From the IMG/VR virus record IMGVR_UViG_3300050821_015011: a DNA stretch of 52,671 bases. The stretch is one strand, 5' to 3'. Made by a program: the position numbers and the translations under genes. The stretch is from a virus. Of this stretch, positions 10,936-50,506 are shown in pieces; positions within the stretch are counted from its first letter, which is position 1, and each line of letters opens with the position of its first letter. The notes below the pieces were generated by a model. The model saw only the letters and a list, made by a program, of their open reading frames with translations. It was not told the origin of the DNA and made no database searches.

Positions 10936-11133
10936 ATGTCGACAAAAGCGACTATGCAGCACGCCATTGACCGAGTGTTCAGTGCGGTGATGGTTGAAGC
11001 GGCTCTCGTTCTGAGGGAGAATCTCCAGAACAATAAGACCTTATCAATCACGGATTTGCTTCGTGGTGTTCGTGACAAGATCAATGCGGAAGTAGGATCT
11101 GTTCCGATTCCCTGTAATACCGAACAAGGCTGA
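10936..11133 (+). CDS. hypothetical protein (65 aa)
   Basis: ORF track. Possible TTGTCA-N15-TCATTAT promoter upstream. Confidence 0.35.
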   Translation: MSTKATMQHAIDRVFSAVMVEAALVLRENLQNNKTLSITDLLRGVRDKINAEVGSVPIPCNTEQG

Positions 11134-11194: not shown

Positions 11195-11590
11195 ATGGAG
11201 GAACCGATGGAAGCGAAGGAAGCGAAGTACAACTGGAACAGCAACGAGAAGCGTCTCCTGGAGACCCTGAAGCGCGCGCGCGGTCCGCTGCACCTGAGCG
11301 AGCTGGCCAAGCGGGCATTCGGTCCCCGCCGGCTGAAGAAGGAGAAGGCCAATAGCTGGGCGCGCAACAGCCTGCGTCGTCCCGTGAAGTTCCGCCTGGT
11401 CAAGCAGGTCGAGCGCGGCACCTACGAGTTCATCGGGACCAAGGGCAAGCCGACCAAGCGCAAGGCCAAGGCGGCGACGGCGATGAAGCGCCCGAAGAAG
11501 GCGACCAAGCCGGTGAAGTCGCAGCAGTCGAAGCAGGCGCCGGAGCAGGCGACGCCGGCCGCGGAGCAGAAGCCTTTGGTGACGGTGTGA
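11195..11590 (+). CDS. lysine-rich DNA-binding protein (winged-helix-like core plus histone-H1-like KPxK tail)
   Basis: ..LSELAKRAFGP..VKFRLVKQVERGTYEF, then KPTKRKAKAATAMKRPKKATKPVKSQQSKQAP. TCGTACAAC at 11134-11142 and a 5' UTR hairpin CTCGGG..CCCGAG. Confidence 0.45.
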   Translation: MEEPMEAKEAKYNWNSNEKRLLETLKRARGPLHLSELAKRAFGPRRLKKEKANSWARNSLRRPVKFRLVKQVERGTYEFIGTKGKPTKRKAKAATAMKRPKKATKPVKSQQSKQAPEQATPAAEQKPLVTV

Positions 11591-11613
11591 CCTGTGCCGT
11601 CCTCATCGGAAAT

Positions 11614-11649
11614 GGGTGAGCGTAGGATCAGATTCTCCTACGCTCACCC
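11614..11649 (+). terminator. 14-bp-stem hairpin (GGGTGAGCGTAGGA tcagattc TCCTACGCTCACCC), likely terminator
   Basis: Perfect inverted repeat 24 nt after the stop at 11590. No U-tract, so it would be an I-shaped or factor-dependent terminator. GGGTGAGCGTA recurs at 11806. Confidence 0.5.
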
Positions 11650-11901
11650 AGCTCTTGCGTACCTGCTAGCCTACGCTTATCCGGCTGAGATCCAAAGGGA
11701 GCTATCACCGCCTATGATGGCCCGACAGACGCGAGATGGGGGTAGGCGCTCCCGCGCGGATACTATGGTGTTCGGCAACATCGAGCATGCCTTTTGGGTC
11801 TCAGTCGGGTGAGCGTAATCAGAACCAACCAACCGCAAAGAATCAAGTAATCCGGCGGCGTGCTGGACGTACAACCAAGTATCAGGTAAGAGGAGAATGT
11901 C

Positions 11902-15748: not shown

Positions 15749-16126
15749 ATGGCCCGGAAGACGGTATTCGCAGTCGGAGAGCGTTGGTTCTACACCAACA
15801 ATGCTTCGCCGGTGCCGTTCGAGTTCGTGATCGTCGGCTCGGGCAGTACGAAGGATCGTAAGCGGTGCCGGCTCGAAGTCATCAAGCATCCCGAGAAGTG
15901 TGACGGGAAGTTCCCCTGTCTCGGGGAGAGATGTTTCCACAATCACCAGGGTGACTATACGCGCAAGCACTTGCGCCGAGTGGCGAAGCATATCCTGCCT
16001 CCGACGGTCTATGAGGAACCATCAGGTGCTTTTGGTGACTCGTTGGAGGAAGAGTGGGCTCGTGATTTTTACGAGCTGGAACAGGCGATGGAAGCAGAGC
16101 TGGAACAGAGCGAAACCGAGGAGTGA
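15749..16126 (+). CDS. hypothetical Cys-containing protein (125 aa)
   Basis: TCGTACAAC at 15735-15743, 5 nt before the ATG. Confidence 0.5.
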   Translation: MARKTVFAVGERWFYTNNASPVPFEFVIVGSGSTKDRKRCRLEVIKHPEKCDGKFPCLGERCFHNHQGDYTRKHLRRVAKHILPPTVYEEPSGAFGDSLEEEWARDFYELEQAMEAELEQSETEE

Positions 16127-27416: not shown

Positions 27417-27896
27417 ATGATCTTCAATCACATGTATCAGCCGCACATCGATCAGCTAAAACAGGAAGCCGGGGAAGATCTTATCGGTCTCACCTCGGGT
27501 ACTTTTGACTTGTTCCATGCGATGCATCTCAGGTATCTCAATCGCTGCTGGGGAATGTGTAGACGGCTGATTGTGGGTGTCGATTCTGATGAACTTGTAC
27601 GCCACAGGAAGGGGATCGAGCGACCCATCATCCCGCAATACGAGCGACTTGGGATCGTGGCAGGTCTGAAGTGCGTCAGCGCAGCCTTCTTGATGGATTC
27701 TTACGATGACTTCTGGGGCTTAGTGGAGAAGGTCACCCCGAAGTACATCTTCAAGAATGTACCGTTCCATCAGGAGCATGATCTGCACGGCGCCAAGGTC
27801 GTTCTCGTGTCAGACGATATGGAATCGGCCACCAGCACTACTTCAATCATCCGACGAATTCGACAGGGAACGTCGATAAGGTCAGCCGGAGGCTAA
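27417..27896 (+). CDS. cytidylyltransferase-family nucleotidyltransferase (TagD/RfaE-domain-II-like)
   Basis: HIGH-type motif GTFDLFHAMHLRYLNRC. LIVGVDSDELVRHRKGIERPIIPQYERLGIVAGLKCV aligns with glycerol-3-phosphate cytidylyltransferase. Confidence 0.65.
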   Translation: MIFNHMYQPHIDQLKQEAGEDLIGLTSGTFDLFHAMHLRYLNRCWGMCRRLIVGVDSDELVRHRKGIERPIIPQYERLGIVAGLKCVSAAFLMDSYDDFWGLVEKVTPKYIFKNVPFHQEHDLHGAKVVLVSDDMESATSTTSIIRRIRQGTSIRSAGG

Positions 27897-35333: not shown

Positions 35334-35373
35334 CCCCTGGTAATTGTCGCTGGCCAGGTTCGTATAACTAGCC

Positions 35374-35742
35374 ATGGAATTCACGATGTTCAGCTACAAG
35401 GTGGTCATCCATTTCAGCCTCACGAGGGCGGAGCTGGAGACGATCACGATCATGTCCAAGCACCATTACGACTACAAGTGCCGAGCGGCATCCGAGGTTG
35501 GTGGTTTCATCTATGGCTGGCACAACAGCTTCGATTTCATGGATGTCGACGGCAAGCCCGCTGATAAAATAGAAGTGCGGTTGGGGTCAGATAATCTGGA
35601 TTTGCTTTGCAAGATCTGCGAGAACGTCATCTCCCTCGGAGACAAGCGCAAGGATGGCGACAGGATCTACCGCGTCATCAGCAAGATGCTGCGCGATGCC
35701 ATTGCGGAATGGGTCGCGAGGAATCCGACTCTCGCACTCTAG
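35374..35742 (+). CDS. hypothetical protein (122 aa)
   Basis: tcgtataac at 35360-35368, 5 nt before the ATG. Confidence 0.5.
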   Translation: MEFTMFSYKVVIHFSLTRAELETITIMSKHHYDYKCRAASEVGGFIYGWHNSFDFMDVDGKPADKIEVRLGSDNLDLLCKICENVISLGDKRKDGDRIYRVISKMLRDAIAEWVARNPTLAL

Positions 35743-35921
35743 TCATTAAACAGTCCATCTACCAGATCAGGTGGCCACAGGTCCGGGATGCTCGCTCGAT
35801 CTGTTTCGCCATGGACAGGACATTCTCCGTCCGCTATACGGATCATCCTTGTCTCATAGATTCCGTCTGGCCCAGGCTGCGTAGCCGGGTCATAGCGCTT
35901 CACGCAAACGCATGCGCTCAT
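35739..35921 (-). CDS. hypothetical small protein (60 aa)
   Basis: ORF track, end of the leftward block. Confidence 0.25.
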   Translation of the reverse strand: MSACVCVKRYDPATQPGPDGIYETRMIRIADGECPVHGETDRASIPDLWPPDLVDGLFND

Positions 35922-36436: not shown

Positions 36437-36663
36437 AGGTAGTCTATTCGCGGCTCTTTGCAGCGTCGGCAGATATACGTGTGAGGAGCTTTATCATACC
36501 CGCCAAATTGTTCGGCCCAGCAACCGCTGCACTCGCGGTCATGCTCGAACTCGTGGAAGCACGGGTCTTTGAGCTTCCGGTTGTTGAGAGTTGGGCCGTT
36601 GAGATCACGAACTCCTTGGCGCGTGACCTTGCCACCTGTGGTTGCAGGTGGCGTCTTAGTCAT
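36433..36663 (-). CDS. Cys-rich small protein (about 76 aa)
   Basis: Internal Met start 2 nt after the upstream TAA. CSGC..CRRC. Confidence 0.4.
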   Translation of the reverse strand: MTKTPPATTGGKVTRQGVRDLNGPTLNNRKLKDPCFHEFEHDRECSGCWAEQFGGYDKAPHTYICRRCKEPRIDYL

Positions 36664-36916
36664 CGACGCGCTCCCATTTGGCTTGCCACCTGAGATCAAG
36701 ATCAAATGACTGCTGGCCCTCAACGACCTTAGCACGCACAGCGTCGATCATCGTTGCTACGCTGATCCGCCACTTTGAGCCATCGGGCATATTGACCATC
36801 AACCAGGCGGGCTTCGACGAAGTGACCTCGAAATCAAGGTTCATCGAAGTGTCGACGGTTGCTTCAGTCTTTCCGGCTTGCCGAGGCAAAACGGGATTCT
36901 TGGTGTGTTTGCTCAT
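36656..36916 (-). CDS. hypothetical protein (86 aa)
   Basis: First gene after the long inverted-repeat leader. Confidence 0.45.
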   Translation of the reverse strand: MSKHTKNPVLPRQAGKTEATVDTSMNLDFEVTSSKPAWLMVNMPDGSKWRISVATMIDAVRAKVVEGQQSFDLDLRWQAKWERVDD

Positions 36917-36932
36917 TGTTCTCTTATAGTAC

Positions 36933-37089
36933 AGGTTGGGGGTCGTAGAAGCCCCACGTGGGCAAGGCAGTCAACGCTGGGGAATTTAGCTTGCGGACTT
37001 CCGAGGCATTTAACTCTCCCCGGCACCTTGGGCTCGACGTTTTCTGCTCTTGATTCCCCCCACTGTGGGGCTTCTACGACCTCCGACCT
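36933..37089. repeat. long inverted repeat (perfect 17-bp core GGTCGTAGAAGCCCCAC / GTGGGGCTTCTACGACC, extendable to about 25 bp with G-U) enclosing about 107 nt
   Basis: Arms at 36941-36957 and 37065-37081. Each inner end carries a CCCCAC(G)TGGGG palindrome. Sits between the minus-strand motif-1 (37098-37106) and the gene at 36916. Confidence 0.7.
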
Positions 37090-37097
37090 CCTGCCAT

Positions 37098-37106
37098 GTT
37101 GTACGA
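37098..37106 (-). promoter_or_regulatory. motif-1 (TCGTACAAC) on minus strand
   Basis: rc of gttgtacga. ATG at 37097-37095 opens only a 7-codon mini-ORF (MAGGRRS) before the inverted-repeat leader. Confidence 0.5.
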
Positions 37107-37122
37107 ACGATCTGGCTGTGTA

Positions 37123-37503
37123 TTACGGCAGTTTGGCAAGCCCACCAGGAATGCCAGCCTGCGGGCTGCTGCTGCTTCCCGCGCCACCCATGCCGGCCCT
37201 GATCTTGACCCACTCATGGTTGCCAGGTGGAGCAGGATGCCGCTCGGGCGTGCCACCACAGATCGAACAGGATTTTGCTTCGGCTTCCTCGTAGTCTTTG
37301 ACCACCTCGTCGAACAAGTCGGCGAAAAGATCAAGACTGGCGCGAAACCCGAGCTTACGACGGTAAGCATCCAGTGGATCCTCGCCTCCGCCAAGATGAA
37401 CAACAGGACCATAAGGTCGAGCTAATTCTTCATTGGCCTTGGCTGCTTCCGCCCGCAGCTTCTGCGAGACATGCTGAACAAATTGCTTCAACTCTGGTGT
37501 CAT
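37123..37503 (-). CDS. hypothetical protein with C-terminal CxxC (126 aa)
   Basis: ORF track. Confidence 0.45.
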   Translation of the reverse strand: MTPELKQFVQHVSQKLRAEAAKANEELARPYGPVVHLGGGEDPLDAYRRKLGFRASLDLFADLFDEVVKDYEEAEAKSCSICGGTPERHPAPPGNHEWVKIRAGMGGAGSSSSPQAGIPGGLAKLP

Positions 37504-39736: not shown

Positions 39737-39875
39737 CCCGTAGTCGGGGTTTCATCAAGAACAAGCCAGCGAGACGTATCCATCCGCGCAGGCGTTTGCG
39801 TTCACGATCTTCTTGGTACTTCTATGGAAGCCGATTTGCTAGTGCTCGGATCGAAACTTCGGTAATCTCATCGCC

Positions 39876-40094
39876 ATGACGATGATACCGACGTTCACGT
39901 TCAACTATGAGATCCACTACAAAGGATCCGTCAGCATCCATACCACCGATCAGGCGACGGCCACCGCCCAGTTTCAGGCGCTACAGCTGGCAAATCTGAT
40001 CACCAATGCTGGAGAGCCACAGCTGAACATCACCAGCGTTACGAGCGACGATGTTGCCACGCAGGGCGGTGGACCGACCTGGGAGCCGTACTAG
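39876..40094 (+). CDS. hypothetical protein (72 aa)
   Basis: ORF track, first gene of the rightward block. Confidence 0.4.
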   Translation: MTMIPTFTFNYEIHYKGSVSIHTTDQATATAQFQALQLANLITNAGEPQLNITSVTSDDVATQGGGPTWEPY

Positions 40095-40127: not shown

Positions 40128-40580
40128 ATGAAGCTTCTTTACTGCCAGCGTTGTGGGGATATCGTTTCCCCGTCAAGTCGAGCTTCGCAGCCAAGAACGT
40201 GCGAATGCGGGGTCCATGCAGTTTGGTGGCGGGACCCATATCTCGGAACACTCAGTGTCTTTGACAAGACACGCCGACGAGTAACGTACCTCGATAAGGA
40301 GGGGGATCGTCGGACAACCACAACGAAAGAATGGGGATCGACCTGCTTCATCCTCGGGCTGGCGAACACCTGGCTCAATCACCCTGGGGATAGGCTCAGC
40401 CTGGAAGACTACAAGAAAATCGTAGACGAGATCCCGGACTCTTATATCTTCAAGACCGTGAGAAGTCCGGCGATTCGCATTCGCCCAGGACATAGCTCTG
40501 ATACCAAGTATGAGGATGCCTTGCCGGGACAAGAACCAAGCCCGCCCGATGATTTGGGTACCGTCGTAGATTTCTCGTAA
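40128..40580 (+). CDS. hypothetical protein with N-terminal CxxC..C.C (150 aa)
   Basis: CQRCGD..CECG. Confidence 0.45.
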   Translation: MKLLYCQRCGDIVSPSSRASQPRTCECGVHAVWWRDPYLGTLSVFDKTRRRVTYLDKEGDRRTTTTKEWGSTCFILGLANTWLNHPGDRLSLEDYKKIVDEIPDSYIFKTVRSPAIRIRPGHSSDTKYEDALPGQEPSPPDDLGTVVDFS

Positions 40581-40633
40581 TCCACCTTTTCTCGCTTCGT
40601 ACAACGTCGCAAACGGTATGTACGGAGGAGAAC

Positions 40634-41362
40634 GTGAAGAAGCCCAAGAACACTGTCACCAACACGACGAAAGAGGCGCTGACCGATCACGGCATGCGGG
40701 AGTTCATTATCTTCGAGCGTGATGGCGGAGGACGCGGAGCTGCGATCGAGCACCAGGAGAAGCGCGGGCAGCAGGAGGCGGTCAAGAGCGACACGCTGCC
40801 GACGCGCGGCCTCAATCACTCGGCTTTCGTGGCCATGGGCATCAAGATTGGTAAGCCCGTTCCCGGCGACAGTCTGTTCACCTTCGTCGAGCTGCCGAAA
40901 GGCTGGAAGAAGCAGCCCACGGATCACACCATGTACAGCGACGTGGTGGATGAAAAGGGTCGCAAGCGCGCCAGCTTCTTCTACAAGGCAGCCTACTACG
41001 ACCGCGACGCGAACATCTACCCGACGCTCCGCTACGAGGCCACATATGAGCCGGTGGGCGGCTGGAAGGCGGACGGGGATGCTCCGTGCTTCGCGGTCGT
41101 GAAGGACAGCGGCAACGAGATCTGGCGCAGCCAGAAGCCGCTCGGTAAGGAGACGACGGAACAAGCGGCGTCCCGTGTCGCGAAGTACCGCGCCGAGCTG
41201 GAGAAGCTTACTGGCGAGGAGCACATGGCTTTCAAGAGAAAGTACGATCACATGCTCGACTCGTGGCCCCGTAGCCGTAGCGATATGGCACGCAGCGCCG
41301 CCTGCGACTACCTCGATCAGCATTTCCCGAAATGGGGGGACTATCTCGCTTACTGGGATTGA
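40634..41362 (+). CDS. hypothetical protein (242 aa, GTG start)
   Basis: TCGTACAAC at 40597-40605, then ggaggag Shine-Dalgarno 5 nt before the GTG. Confidence 0.5.
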   Translation: MKKPKNTVTNTTKEALTDHGMREFIIFERDGGGRGAAIEHQEKRGQQEAVKSDTLPTRGLNHSAFVAMGIKIGKPVPGDSLFTFVELPKGWKKQPTDHTMYSDVVDEKGRKRASFFYKAAYYDRDANIYPTLRYEATYEPVGGWKADGDAPCFAVVKDSGNEIWRSQKPLGKETTEQAASRVAKYRAELEKLTGEEHMAFKRKYDHMLDSWPRSRSDMARSAACDYLDQHFPKWGDYLAYWD

Positions 41363-49741: not shown

Positions 49742-50506
49742 CTAACTGCGCGGCCGTTTCGGGCAACGATACGAGTGAGAGACCATCATTCCCCTTATGC
49801 TTGACTTGCCCCCGCAGTTATTACAACGAATGAATTTCTGGTCGCAGTAAGGGCAGGCTGCGAGCGCGTATGTTGGTGTTGTTCTAGTCCCGATCGGGGC
49901 CCCGCAACGATCGCACTTTACTGCGGTCATGTTTCTGAGCGTCGTCTTTGGGATCTTCCAGGCCATCGACATCTTTGGGGGTAAATCTGATGTGGTCGTC
50001 TTTGGTGCCGTGCGTTTGTCTTCCAGGTTCCCACGGCTAAGTACCTCTCTCCGAACCCCAGGCGTGATCGCAGCGGCCTCCAGGATCCGCTTACGTGCTT
50101 CACCAAGCAGACGTCGGCAAGAAGCCTCTTTCATTCCGAGTTCGTTGGCGATGTCTTTGTTTTCGAGACCCATTGTCCGCAGCCGACCAGCAACTGTCTG
50201 TTGTGTTGAGAGCACGTGGTAAAGATCAGGACGCAGTACAAGCGGGTCAGCTTCGTATTCGACCACAGCATTTGGGGATGGATCAGTCTCTCCCGCCATG
50301 GTCCGTTCTGCGCGGTTCAGATGAGCCTGGACGCGTGGCACCGGAATGTTGAAGTGCGCGCTAGTATCTCCCAGACTGTTGTTGAGATAATGATCCACGA
50401 TCTTCCACTGGGTGTCCGTGAGCATGCGGATTGACCCTGGATTGTTCGCAAGTAAGCGTTGCAGGCGTTTCTTCCGCGATGCATCGCTCGATAGATCAGA
50501 TTTCAT
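49742..50506 (-). CDS. putative transcription regulator with two sigma-70 region-4/LuxR-type HTH units and a C-terminal zinc ribbon
   Basis: LTDTQWKIVDHYLNNSLGDTSAHFNIPVPRVQAHLNRAER and LSTQQTVAGRLRTMGLENKDIANELGMKEASCRRLLGEARKRI. C-terminal CDRCG..CPYC..CNNCGG..C. Confidence 0.55.
   Translation of the reverse strand: MKSDLSSDASRKKRLQRLLANNPGSIRMLTDTQWKIVDHYLNNSLGDTSAHFNIPVPRVQAHLNRAERTMAGETDPSPNAVVEYEADPLVLRPDLYHVLSTQQTVAGRLRTMGLENKDIANELGMKEASCRRLLGEARKRILEAAAITPGVRREVLSRGNLEDKRTAPKTTTSDLPPKMSMAWKIPKTTLRNMTAVKCDRCGAPIGTRTTPTYALAACPYCDQKFIRCNNCGGKSSIRGMMVSHSYRCPKRPRS

Follow-up and report, generated by a model that had tools for sequence, protein, structure and literature searches.

RNase III is known to cleave long helices, and phage polycistronic mRNAs carry hairpins that it processes, such as R1–R5 of T7 and the N leader and sib sites of lambda. 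Bacterial mRNAs can also be stabilized at the 5′ end, and both pairing of this end and the presence of an orphan Shine-Dalgarno sequence have been reviewed as features with this effect (PMC3997798, citing Emory et al., 1992 for 5′-terminal stem-loops). Intergenic inverted repeats of similar size have been described in two further contexts. [quoted passage not shown]

Here, we analysed a 157-bp inverted-repeat element found in a 52,671-base stretch of DNA (hereafter, the window), part of a virus or mobile element that is unclassified and comes from soil metagenomes. The 157-bp element has something in common with each of the systems above. With the T7 and lambda hairpins it shares a long, non-coding intercistronic helix with internal mismatches, set in an operon of small genes of a virus-like element; however, the T7 sites are about 60 nt in length and lie between many genes, whereas the present element is a single site which encloses 107 nt and shows no sequence similarity, and its cleavage is putative. 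As in the 5′ stabilizers (ompA and papA of Escherichia coli; ermC, aprE and the cryIIIA STAB-SD of Bacillus), the extreme 5′ end is predicted to be base-paired, with at most a few nucleotides left unpaired, the leader is untranslated and a Shine-Dalgarno sequence close to the 5′ end is an orphan with no start codon after it (PMC3997798), but those structures are short, roughly 10–30 nt, compared with a rod of about 160 nt and a closing helix of 22–30 bp. The C. difficile switch and other invertons are similar in size (about 150 bp), in their roughly 20-bp imperfect inverted repeats, in their placement in the 5′ UTR and in the absence of an adjacent recombinase (PMC5386303); by contrast, the element described here is G+C-rich, has one orientation in five assemblies and contains nothing recognizable as orientation-specific, and no recombinase was found in the window or the next 7 kb. 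Finally, bacterial MITEs (Correia/CREE, ERIC, RUP) are comparable in size, terminal inverted repeats, lack of an ORF, intergenic location and the potential to form a strong co-transcribed RNA hairpin (PMC2649163, PMC10969869), but the present element is a single copy with neither a target-site duplication nor a related IS or transposase, and shows no similarity in the collections searched. The most probable function of the element is of a known kind, and our preferred, albeit tentative, reading is that it represents a cis-acting, 5′-terminal structured leader which affects mRNA stability or processing, likely as a substrate of RNase III.

Genomic context and coding potential

The genes of the window are almost all small ORFans. 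Domain matches include the major vault protein (MVP) shoulder, HerA/FtsK-type and SMC-like ATPases, an amidohydrolase, a NUDIX domain, a receiver domain and a weakly matching sigma-70 region 4, and further Pfam matches were obtained to a cyclic-phosphate-processing receiver (cREC_REC/Response_reg), a cytidylyltransferase-like domain (27417–27896), TPR repeats and DUF6283. The receiver, NUDIX, cytidylyltransferase-like, TPR and DUF6283 domains make up an odd set for a virus-like element. The vault-related domains, namely, the shoulder (E 5.5e-25) and the vault repeat (E 2.8e-9), reside in an 846-aa protein (18–2558, minus strand) which has no match in PHROGs or plasmids. Nothing similar to the window was found among GenBank phages, PLSDB plasmids and IMG/VR, and no relatives emerged when three genes from the neighbourhood were used for protein-guided scanning of IMG/VR. 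The window sequence is nevertheless represented in other assemblies, being also present, at 99.3%–100% identity, on an ENA contig of 94 kb as well as on four or five further contigs (samples ERZ27253726, ERZ27253675, SRR7102015 and JGI 3300021479). The other copies of the 157-bp element are 100% identical and, across five assemblies, occur in a single orientation, with two short contigs running unbroken through the element. In a strain that is 0.7% divergent over 3.8 kb, no change lies within 1.3 kb of the element, an observation which is not statistically meaningful. A comparison of the window with the 94-kb ENA contig over 20 kb showed that 19 of 20 differences cluster in 536 bp (40323–40858), apparently, a local hypervariable or recombined patch extending from the end of one gene to the start of a gene for a 242-aa protein.

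The gap that contains the element measures 206 nt and separates minus-strand genes for proteins of 126 aa (37503..37123) and 86 aa (36916..36656); no other sizeable gap occurs in this minus-strand operon of 13 tightly packed genes. The upstream, 126-aa gene is an ORFan with a strong GGAGG ribosome-binding site and a codon score of 0.12, which is within the gene range; no homologue was found among 5.8 billion proteins. The protein encoded by the downstream gene is small, real and conserved, with two relatives that are 63% identical across the alignment and share a conserved core and a common MSK start. Its AlphaFold model has a pLDDT of 68 and yielded no fold match at E ≤ 0.001, and the protein matched nothing in Pfam or PHROGs. 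Four small genes follow the 86-aa gene downstream of the element, and the downstream genes include those for small helix-turn-helix (HTH)-like and zinc-finger-like proteins (weak matches). Both relatives of the 86-aa gene are located on non-syntenic contigs; in each, the gene begins in overlap with the one before it and lacks a leader. Because neither relative has such a leader, the element is lineage-specific, which fits a recent acquisition or a specialized regulatory addition; it could be a recent insertion.

The element might alternatively encode a small protein, given that the frame of the 126-aa gene remains open for 69 codons beyond the TAA before it is closed by a TGA that shares bases with the start codon of the 86-aa gene (ATGA), an uninterrupted run for which the probability by chance is roughly 0.06 (a rough estimate); a 36-aa peptide starting at an internal GTG is another conceivable product. 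However, the codon-usage score of the open frame through the element (−0.08) is below those of all 155 called-gene windows (mean 0.20, sd 0.09) and sits inside the non-coding distribution, and on this ground both a small ORF and stop-codon read-through were rejected. Furthermore, no ATG, GTG or TTG is within reach of the AGGAGG sequence that precedes the element, and the internal GTG has no ribosome-binding site and lies within the folded interior. Production of a protein from the element is, accordingly, very improbable.

A promoter-like motif and the predicted 5′ end

A bipartite motif, GTAA[T/G]-N15-TCGTACAAC (motif-1), is present in 23 copies in the window, with a spacer of 15 nt (16 nt in one copy). 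All but one of the copies are on the plus strand (22 copies, 7755–49449), and the single minus-strand copy is found at 37126..37098; the motif also occurs at positions 16121 and 19500 of L073. The −35/−10 boxes of ECF type (GTAAC/CGTA) resemble motif-1, and the motif looks like a dedicated promoter of the virus-like mobile element. A search of IMG/VR with motif-1 gave 25 matches with one copy each, which corresponds to the chance level, and identified no relatives. A candidate factor for motif-1 is a 254-aa protein (49742–50506, minus strand) with a weak match to sigma-70 region 4 of ECF type (Pfam E 3.5e-6; below the cut-off in NCBIfam) and a C-terminal, Cys-rich, zinc-finger-like tail; there is no similar sequence with a solved structure. 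In 14 of the 23 copies, the TAA of GTAAT terminates, in frame, an upstream ORF that is 50 codons or longer, so that a stop codon appears to be fused with a −35-like box in what is an unusually compact gene junction.

Start codons generally follow the motif closely. An ATG is located 4–6 nt after motif-1 in 12 copies, whereas in five others AGGAG lies exactly 5 nt after the motif, with an ATG 5–8 nt further on, and all copies but two have a start codon within about 25 nt. The spacing in the former 12 copies implies that the respective mRNAs would be leaderless and start about 6 nt after the motif.

The minus-strand copy is a perfect match to the consensus, consisting of GTAAT (37126..37122), a 15-nt spacer and TCGTACAAC (37106..37098), and the TAA within its GTAAT is the stop codon of the 126-aa gene. 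It is followed by atggcAGGAGG (AGGAGG, 37092..37087) and then by the stem, without a start codon. By analogy with the 12 putatively leaderless genes, the transcript should start at about 37092 (the A of AGGAGG; 37090..37092), which, on the basis of the motif-to-ATG spacing, would place its 5′ end about 3 nt before the first arm of the inverted repeat. The motif is followed by a predicted 176-nt leader, nearly all of which is taken up by the hairpin; the only other copy with a leader longer than about 25 nt is that at 11114, with 52 nt. The initial annotation had located the element between a minus-strand motif-1 promoter and the gene at 36916 and proposed that it is transcribed as a 5′ stem; the location is confirmed, and the proposal is supported by the position of the motif, in that a transcript from the consensus motif directly upstream would have the element at its 5′ end and would read into the 86-aa gene.

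The inverted repeat and its RNA structure

The arms of the inverted repeat (36933–36957 and 37065–37089) are 25 nt each, 92% complementary and separated by 107 nt, for a total of 157 bp with a G+C content of 59%. The core, GGTCGTAGAAGCCCCAC, is exact at 36941–36957 (plus strand) and 37065–37081 (minus strand), forming a perfect 17-bp repeat from which the stem grows to 25 bp outward, in agreement with the extent originally proposed, and to about 30 bp inward. No other inverted repeat of 16 nt or more with arms up to 400 nt apart occurs anywhere in the window, and when the window was simulated 60 times with a first-order Markov model, a single run gave any 17-bp inverted repeat within 400 nt. 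The palindromes that had been reported at both inner ends were also recovered, as CCCACGTGGG (36953–36962) and CCCCACTGTGGGG (37058–37070), each unique in the window; through them, the repeat gains another five pairs on its inner side, beyond a single bulged base, and their dyads have unequal spacing (0 vs 1 central base). The feature is real, statistically exceptional, unique and without homologues.

In the mRNA sense, the 5′ arm (37089..37065) comprises the perfect core (37081..37065) and, among its outer eight positions, C·A and A·C mismatches. The inner 5-bp extension, together with the bulged base 37064 (37059..37064, within CCCCACTGTGGGG), pairs with 36958–36962, and the 3′ side (36962..36933) is formed by this extension (36962..36958) and the arm (36957..36933), with CCCACGTGGG contained therein. 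The enclosed interior (36963..37058) folds into short helices, CAAG/CUUG, GCAG/CUGC and AACG/CGUU, a GGGGA/UCCCC helix and a tip composed of CGG, a tetraloop and CCG; the further inward extension of the stem through CAAG, GCAG and AACG is weak and not significant. Two details of the initial annotation hold only in part. The GGGGAAT (36979–36985) and ATTCCCC (37053–37059) sequences, suggested to pair within the loop, are both present but are not paired with each other in the minimum-energy fold of either strand. The G-U pairs described in the outer arms, which correspond to the two non-Watson-Crick positions 36937/37085 and 36940/37082, exist in the plus-strand RNA, but are A·C and C·A mismatches in the mRNA-sense (minus) strand.

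The inverted repeat could also act as DNA. One such reading, which we consider improbable, holds that CCCACGTGGG and CCCCACTGTGGGG are two dyad operators bound by a regulator, or that the element is a single-strand origin or packaging signal which folds in single-stranded DNA. The palindromes are unique in the window, lie just downstream of the promoter and are spaced by about 106 bp, that is, ten helical turns, and the weakly matching HTH-like and zinc-finger-like proteins are encoded among the downstream genes. Operator dyads, however, leave an additional 19 nt of outward complementarity unexplained, there are no iterons and no AT-rich unwinding region in a sequence with the above G+C content, and no Rep, relaxase or terminase is adjacent. 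The window contains no recombinase either; a replication origin or recombination site, as suggested initially, gains no support from these observations but is still conceivable. In duplex DNA, a 107-bp spacer makes cruciform extrusion unlikely.

At the RNA level, the predicted folds are exceptionally stable. The minus-strand fold has an energy of −85.9 kcal/mol (z −5.6) and that of the plus strand −94.9 kcal/mol (z −7.8), with no shuffle of 200 being as good in either case; when 4,202 windows of 170 nt were scanned, it ranked as the top outlier on the plus strand (−5.9 sd) and third on the minus strand. In the transcript from the predicted start, pair probabilities in the core are 0.99–1.0, so the stem proposed by the initial annotation forms with near-certainty in silico. 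Its suggested action, occlusion of the weak ribosome-binding site, is not borne out: the region from this AAGAG site through the AUG (36930–36914) has a mean unpaired probability of 0.90 in the same transcript and of 0.67 in a read-through transcript from upstream, and the base-pair probabilities, with the Shine-Dalgarno-to-AUG region about 90% unpaired, contradict occlusion. If anything, the modelled hairpin insulates the open, A-rich translation initiation region GUACUAUAAGAGAACAAUG (36932..36914), which is predicted to be unstructured. What the predicted fold does bury is the orphan AGGAGG, leaving at most one 5′ nucleotide unpaired.

Comparison with known RNA classes identified no counterpart. 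Rfam gave no match at the gathering score in the window and none at E ≤ 10 on either strand of 36850–37180, which leaves the suggested family search without a hit, and no tRNA or tmRNA was found. An intrinsic terminator was rejected given that neither strand has a U-tract (the tails after the stem being CCUGUACUAUAA on the minus and CCUGCCAUGUUG on the plus strand), the terminator scan is blank at the element and the loop is 107 nt. Integron attC sites have the core sites 5′-RYYYAAC and GTTRRRY-3′ at the ends of an imperfect hairpin; here, GTT is confined to the left arm, where its polarity is wrong, GTC takes its place in the right arm and there is no IntI, and attC was rejected as well. Retron and 6S-like readings were dropped in the absence of a reverse transcriptase and of a central bubble, respectively.

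The preferred reading as a structured leader builds on the position of the stem relative to the motif, on its near-certain pairing in silico, on the accessibility of the initiation region and on the non-coding character of the element. A very stable 5′-terminal hairpin would head the transcript that runs from motif-1 through the 86-aa gene into the next four small genes. The base-paired 5′ end would shield this mRNA from 5′-end-dependent decay (RppH/RNase E or RNase J), and, together with the orphan Shine-Dalgarno sequence, would stabilize it, without hiding of the ribosome-binding site being part of the action. On the mRNA strand, the predicted helix consists of 17 perfect pairs, a single bulge, five more pairs and then imperfect outer pairs, which bring it to about 30; it thus contains a double-stranded stretch of about two turns (20 bp or more). 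With 22 contiguous pairs apart from the one bulge, and about 30 with the outer ones, this helix would be a likely substrate for RNase III, and host RNase III, cutting within the 22–30 bp, would separate the upstream and downstream mRNAs of the operon and set their relative stability. In read-through transcripts of the 126-aa gene, the hairpin may also protect the 3′ end. A hairpin of about 55 bp in total is, however, far larger than a 5′ stabilizer needs.

The folding energies bear on a further alternative, namely, that the functional strand is the plus strand, where the fold is 9 kcal/mol better (with the higher z-score in absolute terms) and both imperfect pairs are G-U; this mildly favours the opposite strand or an origin at the DNA level. 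In that case, the hairpin would end or stabilize an antisense RNA from the plus-strand motif-1 promoter at 35340. The genes at 35374–35742 (plus) and 35739–35921 (minus) converge and overlap by 4 nt at their 3′ ends (35739–35742), and since this junction has no room for a terminator, transcription from 35340 should proceed through the convergent pair, antisense into the minus-strand operon. Moreover, a perfect 15-bp hairpin that likewise lacks a U-tract follows another gene, and hairpins of this kind may mark RNA 3′ ends. Yet, no U-tract follows the stem of the 157-bp element on either strand, the terminator scan gives no signal, the hairpin is located 1.2 kb past the end of the plus-strand gene and only two positions are informative, and two transition differences would be expected to place both G-U pairs on one strand in half of all cases. 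We consider a plus-strand function distinctly unlikely.

Several other structured sites were noted. The 15-bp hairpin just mentioned (11613–11650, plus strand; 8-nt loop) lies in a 270-nt non-coding gap (11591–11860) after a gene for a basic 131-aa protein (11195–11590), a gap that includes the fourth most structured 170-nt window; it may resemble a terminator in function or represent a further structured RNA. Strong structure, corrected for G+C content, was also seen in the 170-nt windows at 39851–40020 (minus strand, z −4.3), which overlaps a gene for a 72-aa protein beside the divergent promoter region of the minus-strand operon, and at 4151–4400 (minus strand, z about −3.5 to −3.8). In addition, soil and rhizosphere contigs (L021, L030, L031, L034, L038, L043 and L040–L042) carry G/C-rich nested-palindrome elements of 115–140 bp which begin with GAAGCCCCACCCC, end with GGGGTGGGGCTTC and have the inner arms CCCCTCCCC/GGGGAGGGG; their interior is unrelated to that of the 157-bp element, and they may form a repeat family of their own.

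Origin of the element and its place in gene expression

The relatives of the 86-aa gene, which lack the element, raise the question of an insertion. The element could be the relic of a MITE or foldback insertion that settled between a promoter and a start codon, at the one place in a compact genome where it was tolerated, any effect on RNA being a by-product. Its terminal inverted repeats, its length of less than about 500 bp, the lack of a coding-like ORF and its intergenic location would suit such an origin, and the AGGAGG at the canonical post-promoter position, but without a start codon, fits a disrupted original leader; co-transcription and binding or cleavage by RNase III have been described for Correia elements (PMC2649163). 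The search for further copies and target-site duplications proposed in the initial annotation, however, lent the MITE interpretation no support. No direct repeat is present at plausible boundaries in the flanks (TATAGTAC/element/CCTGCCAT), the element is a single copy in about 60 kb (the 52.7-kb window and 7 kb of further contig) and no transposase domain was detected among 137 ORFs of at least 105 aa. No other copy was found in 185,579 species genomes, JGI metagenomes, IMG/VR, GenBank phages or PLSDB plasmids: the two-arm pattern had one match among the genomes, a low-complexity ORF of Prevotellaceae, and 27 loci in the JGI metagenomes, none of them similar by BLASTN; the 17-mer arm matched only coding sequence of unrelated phages in IMG/VR; and BLASTN against GenBank phages and PLSDB plasmids returned no copy. 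Every match to the patterns was coding sequence, low-complexity sequence or an unrelated palindromic element. Because the large scans demanded exact arm cores of 10–11 nt and the searches covered these collections rather than the genome of the host, this result represents an absence of support rather than an exclusion. Overall, we regard an insertion relic as unlikely, although a MITE-like origin and a present function are not mutually exclusive.

Inversion of the interior offers another route to regulation, whereby a recombinase encoded elsewhere would flip the 107 bp between the repeats and thereby alter the leader RNA and the expression of the downstream genes. The geometry, with repeats of 17–25 bp around 107 bp in a leader upstream of a gene, is nearly that of the C. 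difficile flagellar switch (PMC5386303), and each arm has its own dyad-symmetric site, as in recombinase-binding sites. Against this stand the single orientation in the window and four other assembled contigs, including the two short ones unbroken across the element, the absence of an integrase, resolvase or invertase domain from the 137 ORFs of the window and from the gene tables of a further 7 kb, the difference in spacing between the dyads and the lack of a recognizable promoter or terminator in either orientation of the interior. An inverton is, in our view, a distinctly unlikely explanation.

Equally unlikely is the possibility that the element is a novel type of regulatory device, part of an uncharacterized virus-like soil element with its own promoter system and leaderless mRNAs. 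It would then be either an invertible leader switch or a new class of structured RNA, in which a long closing helix is combined with a conserved interior that binds a product of the element or a host factor, and would time the expression of the five small downstream genes.

What the element means depends on which of these readings applies. Should it be only the relic of an insertion, it would matter little. The promoter system and its carrier are arguably more remarkable than the hairpin. If the preferred reading as a working 5′ leader is correct, the element would be the one exception in an extremely compact virus-like mobile element in which promoters serve almost every gene individually and untranslated RNA is nearly absent, and would point to a block of genes that needs a protected or processed mRNA end. 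The 157-bp element also marks the boundary between the part of the operon without a motif-1 promoter and the part putatively driven by motif-1, and, for this reason, provides a natural handle on the timing of gene expression in a lineage without cultured or annotated relatives.
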